Notes: generated from the letters alone by a model not told the origin. A DNA stretch of 64,000 nucleotides from Eledone cirrhosa (GCA_964016885.1 OZ024748.1:9052001-9116000); one strand, 5' to 3'. Numbered from the stretch's first letter, positions 2,288 to 29,805 are shown. A program made the numbers and translations.

Positions 2288-2710
2288 ATATAATATATTA
2301 ACAAATGGAAACTATATTTATAAAACCATATTTATTTCATTATACATATTTATTTCGTTTCTGAATTTGGTGCGTGTGTTTCTTATTGGCAACATGACCC
2401 TCCCAAAGTATAACCATATTTATTTCATTATACATATCCGGGAGCTTCCAACCGACATGGTCGCATTCTTTAAGGGTATGTCAATATTTGTTTATAAAAC
2501 TGATCTATATTATATTTCATCTGATGAAAGCGCACCATAATTTACTTTGGTGTCCTTGAAATATGATAATGAAATAAATATGGTTTTATAAATATAGTTT
2601 CCATTTGTTAATATATTGTATTTTTACTCCAATAATTTGTTGAGTGCTTTATATCAGTTATAAAAATATTTGCTTGTTGTATCCCAACAAATTAAATATA
2701 ACTTCTACAT
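2288..2710 (+). mobile_element. Short non-autonomous fold-back PLE-terminus element (family H1) with hammerhead
   Basis: Inverted arms ~2292-2351 / ~2559-2617, hammerhead core, and a ~90 nt tail (actccaataatttgttgagtgcttt...ttctacat) ending in (TA)n. Homologous to 22052-22334 and 29153-29805. Confidence 0.8.
2513..2576 (+). ncRNA. Type I hammerhead ribozyme motif
   Basis: tatttcat-CTGATGA-aagcgcacca...tggtgtcctt-GAAA-tatga-TA-atgaaata. Stem I is 8 bp. Stem III has lost one base relative to the sister copies. Confidence 0.7.
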
Positions 2711-2737
2711 ATATATGTATATATATATATATATATA

Positions 2738-4120
2738 TCTTAGTCTTAGATTCTTCCGCGCCGTTTGGCCCATCGAGCAGTAAGTAAGCGGCAACTTTTT
2801 CGAGACCGTGCCAGGTGATGTTGGCTGCCATCAGGTCCTTCCGGAACATTCGTCGCCAGGTGATCCTTGGGCAACCCCGCCTCCGTTTACCGCCAGCCGG
2901 AGTCCAGTTCATCGCTGTTTTCGAATGCCGTTCATTTGGCAGACGCAGAATATGGCGGCCAGCCAGGCGGCACCGACGCTCCGTCACCACTCTCTGTAGC
3001 GTCCACGACTCGGCTCTCCGCAGGATCTCCTCGTTTCGCACTCGGTCGCACCAGGACACACGAAGGATCTTTCGCAGGCACCGCTGGTGGAAAGCATTCA
3101 GCCGTCTCTCTATTTTTGCCGTACTCTTCCAGGTCTCGCTCACATAAAGCACTGTCGGCAGCACTGTGTTCTTGTACAGGCGAAGCTTGATCTTGGTGCT
3201 AATGCGTGAAGACGACCAGGCTGGGCACAGCCGCTGGAAAACCGCAGCTCCTTTGCCGATCCGACAGTTGATGTCGAGCTCCGCGTCGCCGCTGCTTGGC
3301 AGGATGCTGCCCAGATAAGTGAAGTGATCGACTTCCTCGAGGTCCTGCTGGTTGATTCTGATCACTGGACCTGTGTTGCTGGCCCTTCTCATGACGTTGG
3401 TCTTTTTGGTGTTGATTCTCAGGCCGATCTTTTCTGCACTCTCTTGTGCGGATGTTGTTAGGGCCTGCAGATCTGCACTGTTTTCAGCGATCAAAGTGAT
3501 GTTGTCGGCGAATGCCAGGTCCCTCAGCCTCAACTGCCCTCTCCATGGGATTCCTCGACCGGGTCCTTCATCCTTAGTACGAAATCGGCTGCCAGCAGGA
3601 ACAACAGTGGAGAGAGAATGCAACCCTGTCTGACTCCGGAGACAATGTCAAAGAACTCCGTCACGCCGGACTCAGTCTGCACGCAGCAGCTGGAGTTTTC
3701 ATACAGGGCCTTGAAAATGGCGATGAATCTTGCAGGAATGTCGTACAGTTGCGCAATATTTCACAGCGACTCCCGGTGTACACTGTCGAATGCCTTCTGG
3801 AAATCAATAAAATTGACCGCCAAAAGCTGTTGTAGCATTGTTCGAGAATGTTGCGTAGTTTAAAGATCTGTTCCGTGCAAGATCGATTTTTTCGGAGTCG
3901 ACGCAGCAGCACAGTGCAGAACTCTTTGAGCAGCTCAGCAGAGATCTCCTCCAGTTCGCCTGCTTTGCCGTTCCTCAAGTGGCTAATGGCATCTCTCGTC
4001 TCTTGCTTGGTGATATGCCCCTCGCAGATTTTGAGTACCTCAGTGGTTGCTGGAGTCTCTACGGTCAAGTCTATCAGGGTGACCGGATTTGGTAGGTTCA
4101 GCGTCTCCCGGAAGTGCTCC
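2738..4120 (-). mobile_element. RTE-clade LINE, 5'-truncated and decayed (RT region and 3' end)
   Basis: Translations contain SGVRQGC, LAFADNITL (decayed FADD), HFTYLGS, LRLYKNTVLPTVLY, LNAFHQRCLRKIL and WTPAGGKRRRGCPRITW. The 3' end is a short (CTAAGA)2 tail. It has frameshifts and internal deletions, with (TA)n on both sides. Confidence 0.92.
2745..3623 (-). pseudogene. RTE reverse transcriptase C-terminal remnant
   Basis: Part of the 321-aa ORF-track entry. The catalytic DD is changed to DN and the frame is broken upstream. Confidence 0.85.
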
Positions 4121-4729
4121 ATATATATATATATATATATATATATATATATATATATACCTGAGTGACACAACACAAGTATATTACACACCCGACACAA
4201 CACAGGTATATTACACAAACCTGTTAGAAATCGCTATCAAATCTCCCTCAAATCAGCAGATTTCCTCCAGAAAACGAGATATTGAGTGAGAACAGAGAAA
4301 GAGGAAGAATCTACCCGAGTACTAGTCGAAACAACTACCACAAAGCCTTCTATTTAATATTCTAACTCTGCCAATTTGCTGCCTGTTTTTAACGTTATGT
4401 ATAAGATTGACTAGAACGTGCCAAGACCATTCAAAGAATTTAGAACAATCTTCTGCAAGTCGGAATTATATCTCACAACAGAATCCAAACAATCAATACC
4501 TCGTACATAGGTCACTGTCCAGTCATCCGTTGAGCGGTTCAGTGGAACGAAAACTGGGTCTTTTGGTATTTTCTCTTTGAGGTACGAACTTGGTATATTG
4601 TACATAAATATATTTATAGCTATAGAATATTAAAACTATACTACACTGATCTATTGATTTGTCCTAATTAATGGACGGTGGGATAGTCGGTCGAATAGTG
4701 CAAACCCACCCCCTAAGCATAGTCTATTG

Positions 4730-5050
4730 AACCAATAATGATGAAAGGAAAAACTACGAGCAAAATATAGTGAATCTTAACTTGCAGCGAGGGGGTGAGT
4801 GATTGATCCAGCTTGATTTGAACTCAGAATCAATAGTTTCATCTAAATATTCTACAGGATTGTTCCTCCACTGTGTTTATATATATATATATTTATATAA
4901 ATTACTGCATTTATGTGATACTGTGTCTCTTTGTTTTACTTCCGAAGACGGGCTAAAGCCCGACACGTTGAACGTTTTTCCCCCTTTTGCATATAAAGCG
5001 TGAAACTAATAAGACTTTTTGTACCTCTGTTTTGTCATTTCTTTGAACTA
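4730..5050 (+). mobile_element. Probable decayed PLE 3' end with degenerate minimal hammerhead
   Basis: 4942-4969 reads CCGAAGA-c-gggct-aa-agccc-GACA-cg-TT, two changes from the CTGAAGA...GAAA core. It ends in (TA)n. Upstream ERKNYEQNIV weakly resembles a GIY-YIG C-terminal helix. Confidence 0.35.
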
Positions 5051-29285: not shown

Positions 29286-29351
29286 TATTTCATTATATAT
29301 ATTTCAGGGATATCATATTAAAAATATGGTATGCCTTCCTCAGACAAAATA
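29286..29351 (-). ncRNA. Type I hammerhead ribozyme motif (mirror copy)
   Basis: Reverse complement of 29499-29564. Confidence 0.78.
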
Positions 29352-29498
29352 CAATATATAAACCGTTTTATAAATAAATTTGACATACCTTAAAACAGTG
29401 CAACTTCCATTTAAAAAGTTGATTTGGTAGTTGATTTAAATGGAAGTTGCACTGTTTTAAGGTATGTCAAATTTATTTATAAAACGGTTTATATATTG

Positions 29499-29564
29499 TA
29501 TTTTGTCTGAGGAAGGCATACCATATTTTTAATATGATATCCCTGAAATATATATAATGAAATA
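29499..29564 (+). ncRNA. Type I hammerhead ribozyme motif
   Basis: tattttgt-CTGAGGA-aggcataccatat...atatgatatccct-GAAA-tatata-TA-atgaaata, with palindromic stem III. Confidence 0.78.
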
Positions 29565-29630
29565 AATATGGTTTTATAAATATAGTTTCCATTTGTTTAA
29601 TATCGTATATATATATATATATATATATAT

Positions 29631-29805
29631 ATGCAAAAGTTCTATTTAAATTGTTGGGATACAATAAGCAAATATTTTTATAACTGATATAAAGCACTCA
29701 ACAAGTATTTGGAGTAAACATACGATATTAACTTGGTGTCCTTGAAATATGTATAATGAAATAAATATTGTTTTATAAATATAGTTTCCATTTGTTAATA
29801 TCGTA
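29631..29805 (-). mobile_element. Second family H1 insertion in the same TA array
   Basis: Minus-strand tail (~29631-29732) is joined to a plus-strand piece that begins inside hammerhead stem II (ttggtgtccttGAAAtatgtaTAatgaaata) and ends at ttaatatcgta|(TA)n. Confidence 0.82.

Follow-up and report, generated by a model that had tools for sequence, protein, structure and literature searches.

Short hammerhead-bearing insertions in Eledone cirrhosa are probably two-armed by-products of Hydra-clade Penelope-like elements

In a window of 64,000 nucleotides from Eledone cirrhosa (GCA_964016885.1 OZ024748.1:9052001-9116000), which lies in an AT-rich genome of 3.0 Gb, we found four copies of a hammerhead family that we call H1. 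These copies are very probably short two-armed insertions of the leader/terminal repeat of Penelope-like elements (PLEs) of the Hydra clade that have intact coding copies in the same genome, and are likely dead-end by-products of copying. H1 is of a known kind, namely stubs of Hydra-clade PLEs, and may already be listed in the supplement of PMC8557442.

According to the explanation that we favour, Pol II would start at a fixed point (+1) and give a capped parent RNA, the endonuclease of the element would nick both strands of a (TA)n target, and the reverse transcriptase (RT) would prime at two sites inside the leader, both of them lying immediately 5' of a copy of a repeated stem-loop. Both cDNAs would stop early or run off the cap and then be joined head to head. 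In the resulting stubs the hammerhead would be a passenger; in the parent transcript it is likely to act as a dimer formed between both terminal repeats.

Four two-armed insertions in the window

An earlier reading of this DNA from its letters only (hereafter the sequence-only reading) had described four insertions as single elements, three of them with a full hammerhead core. All four lie where it placed them, but each is composed of two arms set head to head, as was seen when the four copies were searched against the window by BLAST. A motif scan of both strands recovered the three cores already described, at 2521, 22142 and 29507 on the plus strand, and a fourth one at 29343 on the minus strand which had been missed. 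The unit that the arms have in common is about 278 nt long and is made up of the start point, the hammerhead and a tail of 88 nt. It is numbered here from the A of the conserved motif C-ACT(A/G)(T/C)C (+1), with the core starting at +88/89 and the predicted cut after +137.

Copy 1 begins with an inverted arm (2288..2351, minus strand, unit +127 to +190) that ends at the first, or short, 3' site. This arm is separated by a junction filler (2352..2434) from the tailed arm of subfamily S1 (2435..2709, plus strand, unit +3 to +278), which is 95-97% identical to the 3' ends of ORF-bearing copies. The tailed arm contains a type I hammerhead (2513..2576, plus strand, core at 2521) with a predicted cut after 2568 and a stem III palindrome broken by the loss of one base. 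Within the filler, positions 2368-2412 match the end of another repeat and positions 2409-2437 duplicate part of the inverted arm. The same repeat end also abuts (TA)n in loci L002, L006, L028, L072 and L106.

In copy 2 an inverted arm (22049..22130, minus strand, unit +111 to +192) directly meets the tailed arm of subfamily S2 (22131..22334, plus strand, unit +77 to +280), which carries a type I hammerhead at 22134..22199 (plus strand, core at 22142, predicted cut after 22191). Copy 3, which holds two ribozymes, forms an almost perfect hairpin: its tailed arm of subfamily S3 (29154..29431, minus strand) covers the unit exactly from +1 to +277 and has its hammerhead at 29286-29351 (minus strand, core at 29343), and its short-site arm (29435..29607, plus strand, unit +17 to +188) has another at 29499-29564 (plus strand, core at 29507). 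This copy is 98-99% identical to the terminal repeats of the ORF-bearing loci L115-L117. Copy 4 has a tailed arm (29632..29728, minus strand) which starts from about +192 and is barely more than the tail, and a short-site arm (29733..29805, plus strand) which starts from +116 and retains the 3' half of the hammerhead only, the CUGANGA half being absent. Copies 2 and 3 are about 89% and 81% identical, respectively, to the subfamily of copy 1.

A 27-mer shared by the copies gave 39,878 exact matches in the genome, a count of arms rather than of insertions and a lower bound, whereas its reversed control gave none; H1 is therefore not a product of chance. Rfam returned no match in the window at the gathering score, and at relaxed E it returned repeat-driven miRNA matches only; in three loci searched with E up to 5, none of the hammerhead families was matched.

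The parent elements

Among the 30 best genome matches to copy 1, three (L013, L017 and L023) extend upstream, and the extended L013 holds, about 1.7 kb upstream of its ribozyme, a degraded ORF that resembles an RT. A search with that stretch returned many longer copies, and pieces of ORF accompany a copy-1-like 3' end (95-98% identity) in 11 of 12 fetched loci, L052 having the C-terminal part. For S2, an ORF lies upstream on the same strand in 5 of 20 loci. For S3, 30 loci were fetched, and the unit stands directly before the ATG in 27 of the 29 in which the start of the ORF could be read, a layout also present in one S2 copy and in one degraded S1 copy. The unit recurs behind the ORF, and all three subfamilies of the window have ORF-linked copies. 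The sequence-only reading had suggested, as one of two options, short products of an unseen PLE, and had proposed a search for longer copies joined to an RT ORF; such copies exist for the three subfamilies, and the parents are in the same genome. By the refuting condition that it had set itself, copies mapping as nested truncations of one autonomous PLE, the family is not independent, with the nuance that the parents are many related subfamilies and not one element.

The ORF is uninterrupted over 737-741 aa in four of the five loci with ORFs listed, the fifth being cut at 699 aa. Locus L191 is organised as repeat, ORF and repeat, its repeats being 99.1% alike over 1045 nt, and direct repeats 96-99.6% alike were found in L117, L191, L193, L194 and L196. 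Inverted arms or partial tandem repeats, both of which occur here, are the pseudo-LTRs by which PLEs are recognised.

The AlphaFold model of the parent protein (pLDDT 90) has telomerase RTs as its best Foldseek matches (E 2.6e-9), and the DD motif is invariant in 53 aligned sequences. Pfam gave no match for the query protein, and among the 53 aligned sequences it recognised RVT_1 in two and GIY-YIG in three; Pfam and PDB sequence searches with single ORFs were blank or weak. In the L191 protein we recognised the motifs DKT and RWR, a CxCx5C linker, and CxxC and CxH around conserved E and N residues. Its putative GIY-YIG end, read by eye, shows IIY...YVG followed by the E and N. The named homologs are from Argonauta. 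Judging by these motifs, which set the clade, the parent appears to be a Hydra-clade PLE.

Two 3' sites and a repeated stem-loop

The 3' ends of 262 arms fall at +188-192 or at +277-280, a pair of fixed sites with a spacing of 88 nt. Of 64 inverted pairs, 54 combined a short arm with a tailed one; seven pairs had two tailed arms, three had an odd end and none had two short ones. The tailed ends mostly run into TATATA and the insertions sit in (TA)n. Such two-site 3' ends in (TA)n are the known "tail" signature of PLEs. The tail has been described as the outcome of two RT start sites (PMC11167929), and PMC8557442 and PMC11167929 also report the two 3' sites with one arm of each in an inverted pair.

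A stem-loop of the form RCTCC...TGAGY starts 7-8 nt past each 3' site in S1, S2 and S3, its closing pair being A-U at the first site and G-C at the second. The second copy is confined to the stretch between the tail and the ATG. We infer that this repeated stem-loop may position the RT.

The possibility that the tail is an intron was rejected, as the tail is followed by TATAT and not by the G of an acceptor. A splice-donor-like GTATGT/GTACGT occurs at about +43 to +47 of the unit, and parallels the intron described 46 nt after the start in Drosophila Penelope. About 50 nt upstream of +1, long copies of S1 and S2 (L146, L149 and L013) carry ATTTGCAT, which we take to be octamer-like; S3 does not.

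Selection on the hammerhead

In 17 sequence types of the type I hammerhead, picked by hand, 98.7% of the cells are paired and 9 of the 18 pairs are changed on both sides. Only 0-1 of 500 shuffles equalled the observed covariation and slid controls fell far below it, but kinship among the rows inflates these counts, which are for that reason taken as support and not as a p-value. Selection for the hammerhead structure, as the sequence-only reading had suggested, is backed across subfamilies by the 17 types. The stem I pairs C-G, U-A and U-G are as it described them, and so is the U/G change at N7. Its C-G to U-A change is likewise real, but most likely passed through U-G, which is the commonest pair in that column (U-G 117, U-A 103 and C-G 15 among 240 motifs). 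Helix III is a palindrome (ATATATAT, ATATGTAT or ATGCGCAT) that stays self-complementary while its sequence changes, which fits an action as a dimer; minimal and dimeric hammerheads with a short palindromic helix III have been described in PLEs (PMC4209133).

The variation of the hammerhead lies between subfamilies. Within subfamilies, the 11 core positions of the copies change rarely, and as often as the flanks do (20/2257 vs 227/22681, p 0.74). The isolated motif had a folding z-score of -3.6 in copy 1, whereas copies 2 and 3 both gave about 0. When copies 1-3 were folded whole, the predicted pairing probability of stem I was 0, the inverted arm capturing the 3' half of the ribozyme; once this arm was removed, the equilibrium model gave about 0.75 for copy 1, but copies 2 and 3 still formed no stem I. 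In stubs, the ribozyme is thus predicted to be kept from folding by the inverted arm. Taken together, variation between subfamilies, a core that mutates like its flanks and a fold blocked by the inverted arm indicate that selection acted on the parents.

An extension of helix I is predicted in the window at 2480-2600, where TTTATAAAAC would pair with GTTTTATAAA; it is kept in the three subfamilies and may explain the strong conservation of the 27-mer after the cut site. Type I hammerheads of at least one other family, in which helix II has a different sequence, occur near TA repeats (L052:245-311, L080:3061-3126 and L093:842-896).

The pile-up of 5' ends at +1

The exact 5' ends of the arms are scattered, with a pile-up at +1 to +9. 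Our unselected sample consisted of the 77 matches to the 27-mer that come first on contig C1 and was classed by hand, since it holds far more subfamilies than our three yardsticks and automatic calls of 5' ends are unreliable on it. In this sample 37 arms continue natively upstream of +1, with a single one of them ending within the first 30 nt; a further 16 have their end at 0 to +9, and the other 24 stop further inside.

Many of the ends at +1 carry an extra G. The S2 start motif is preceded genome-wide by G in 184 cases and by A, C or T in 968; in the first 100 of the latter, the native base C accounts for 81, A for 12 and T for 7, so that about 184 would have A or T. The S3 start is preceded by a non-native base in 180 cases (33 G, 37 A and 30 T in the first 100) vs 1096 native ones. 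All 20 inspected S2 loci with a G end exactly at +1, although in about half of these junctions the G could stem from the other arm by microhomology, and 18 of 20 loci with a C extend upstream. G stands before 7 of 15 ends at +1 and, among the remaining junctions, before 15 of 101 (p 0.008). In the unselected sample three arms end exactly at +1, and these carry A, T and T, and no G. The extra G also has an unexplained strand skew (111 vs 73). At the junctions of full-length LINE-1 an extra G has been read as a copied cap (PMC11702581), and the pile-up at +1 with its extra G likely marks the capped start of the parent RNA. Two contig runs of unspecified kind yielded no signal for starts, ends or circles. 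In the open-licence literature we found no paper reporting such a capped wall.

It is unlikely that the wall instead reflects stalling or fold-back of the RT at a hairpin or palindrome (about +1 to +30), or the addition of an untemplated base. Folding does predict a hairpin at about +12 to +30, many arms end at +3 to +9 and not exactly at +1, and several junctions lie at short palindromes (L232), as they also do in PMC3846280. Such a stall is nevertheless difficult to reconcile with the exactness of the 20 G-prefixed ends and with L056 and L060, where the extra G is present on both arms. G is not enriched at other junctions, and C-A-C-T at +1 is kept across subfamilies whose downstream sequence differs. 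A further cluster of ends, at +42, vanished once the junctions were re-read.

Copies that extend beyond +1

The leaders that precede an ORF behave differently from the stubs. We examined 27 of them, of which 15 are truncated within the leader and 12 get as far as +1, with none of the 12 stopping there: four end 5-9 nt upstream and eight continue into 3'-end sequence for 23 to >600 nt. For these eight, a capped linear monomer could not serve as template without a jump, and a circle, a multimer or strand transfer would all fit. When 5' and 3' repeats were compared, leaving out L195, the pairs within an element were the closest or tied in 5/5, a comparison that cannot separate these three routes.

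We tentatively suggest, as a possibility to which we give somewhat less than even weight, that the stubs and the full copies record two templates, a linear capped RNA for the former and a circle, a multimer or strand transfer for the latter. The RT would always prime in the 5' leader, placed by the stem-loop of which a copy follows each start site. From a linear RNA with a cap it would give only a strong-stop stub ending at the cap, and it would go beyond +1 where the RNA has its 3' end joined to the leader, either in a circle made by the dimeric hammerhead, in a multimer or by a retrovirus-like strand transfer. A circle model for PLEs has been proposed earlier (PMC6765202), and PMC11167929 assumes a multi-copy mRNA. 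If the suggestion is true, it would assign a function to the hammerhead of PLEs and account for the partial tandems.

Stubs, SINE-like derivatives or retrozymes

Arm lengths form a continuum from less than 100 nt to several kb, and 40 of the 77 unselected arms, about half, are short. Because the promoter of Drosophila Penelope is internal, stubs that begin at +1 may be transcribed, and one could imagine that they keep this promoter and copy themselves in trans as a SINE-like PLE derivative. Non-autonomous PLE derivatives are indeed known (PMC8557442; bioRxiv 2026.07.22.740005), and a few junctions recur (L129/L136 and L131/L134). We nevertheless consider this origin improbable. The recurring junctions sit on microhomology, the lengths are continuous, and stubs lack the second copy of the stem-loop, yet 61 of 64 inverted pairs carry a tailed arm. 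The tree of arms contains no short-only clade, but it has little resolution inside subfamilies (94 of its 119 branches are open), so that small lineages able to copy themselves could go unnoticed there. Across its 125 arms the label short or long changes 36 times against a mean of 39 in shuffled trees, 78 of 500 shuffles being as low.

Even less credible, and in our opinion very nearly out of the question, is that H1 is a true non-LTR retrozyme, in which tandem hammerhead repeats would give small circles that return to DNA. The type I hammerhead, the palindromic stem III, the length of about 280 nt and the low GC do fit the retrozyme size class (PMC7229834), but retrozymes are defined by tandem units (PMC7229834; bioRxiv 2026.07.22.740005). 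No head-to-tail array was found in 158 loci chosen by similarity or position, the arms being head to head; three same-strand neighbours are separate insertions, split by (TA)n or from mixed subfamilies. The unit moreover belongs to ORF-bearing elements. No 5' ends were found at the cut site in 41 partner arms and 77 unselected arms, which counts against retrozymes, and a cut ribozyme product as template found no support either. Three arm ends at +136, 5' of the cut, look like chance or other-family matches. The independent non-autonomous ribozyme retroelement offered by the sequence-only reading is not supported, given the lack of head-to-tail arrays in these loci, the mixed tree and a core that is unprotected in the copies. 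Stubs of PLEs remain the explanation that we prefer.

Neighbouring elements in the window

A related but more distant, Hydra-like PLE, built as the H1 insertions are but on a larger scale, occupies 35870..39652 on the plus strand, with an inverted arm from 35870 to about 36670 (800 nt) and a 5'-cut ORF (36672-38276) whose protein has 45% identity to the H1 parent protein. It has hammerheads, different from that of H1, at 39458-39528 (plus strand, core 39466) and 35903-35973 (minus strand, core 35965), the helix III ATGCGCAT, a CACTATC motif 49 nt before the core and an H1-like tail.

A second, very young PLE lies at 41972-49648, where an ORF (44322-46256) stands between two arms of 2351 nt that are 100% complementary. 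The genome has dozens of copies of it, with 99-100% protein identity and open frames of 830 aa. At 7 nt past the tail, its leader too carries a GCTCC...TTGAGC motif, the loop of which is long and may be intronic. The motif scan found no canonical hammerhead in this element, although the Hydra clade is said always to carry one. Beside copy 1 there is also a broken LINE-like RT fragment (2658-4233, minus strand, Pfam RVT_1 E 3.9e-6).

Significance

Solitary hammerheads with covarying stems in animal genomes can be PLE debris mistaken for retrozymes. How PLEs make full and partial-tandem copies, and what the hammerhead does in them, are described as open in PMC8557442 and PMC11167929. With its uninterrupted ORFs, its arms in the tens of thousands, its inferred start, its two mapped priming sites and a candidate positioning stem-loop, the H1 family is well equipped for such work, and the question of a linear or a circular template is directly testable in it.

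Comparison with known systems

Hydra-clade PLEs, as described in PMC8557442, share with the H1 parent a single ORF with RT and C-terminal GIY-YIG (putative here), the motifs DKT, CxCx5C, CxxC and CxH, a canonical hammerhead located in the terminal repeat, insertion into (TA)n, copies that are inverted and 5'-cut, partial tandems and the tail. Unlike the elements of that paper, generally of less than 3 kb, the H1 parent has about 3.7 kb and a long 3' UTR, with RWR in place of RWK and a tail of 88 nt instead of 30-40 nt.

Poseidon PAc of the green anole (PMC11167929) has two internal RT start sites that define the tail and extends both target strands on an uncut RNA template, as H1 probably does too, and both systems use an AT-rich target and have no cut-site ends. 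The putative H1 start sites are, however, in the leader before the ATG and not inside the ORF, and each is followed by the repeated stem-loop. The passages on Poseidon PAc report no 5' wall with an extra G, and they report an absence of homology between target and RT start site, whereas the H1 leader is TA-rich at both sites.

With the PLE hammerheads of PMC4209133 the H1 ribozyme shares the type I fold, the palindromic helix III, a bulged helix II, the location in terminal repeats and many solitary copies. It differs in a helix I of 8 bp with a predicted extension, and its ribozyme activity is a prediction. Non-LTR retrozymes (PMC7229834; bioRxiv 10.64898/2026.07.22.740005) resemble H1 as non-coding units of about 300 nt with a type I hammerhead and PLE ancestry, but they form head-to-tail arrays that make circles, whereas in H1 the arms are placed head to head and the unit passes without a break into parents that carry an ORF.
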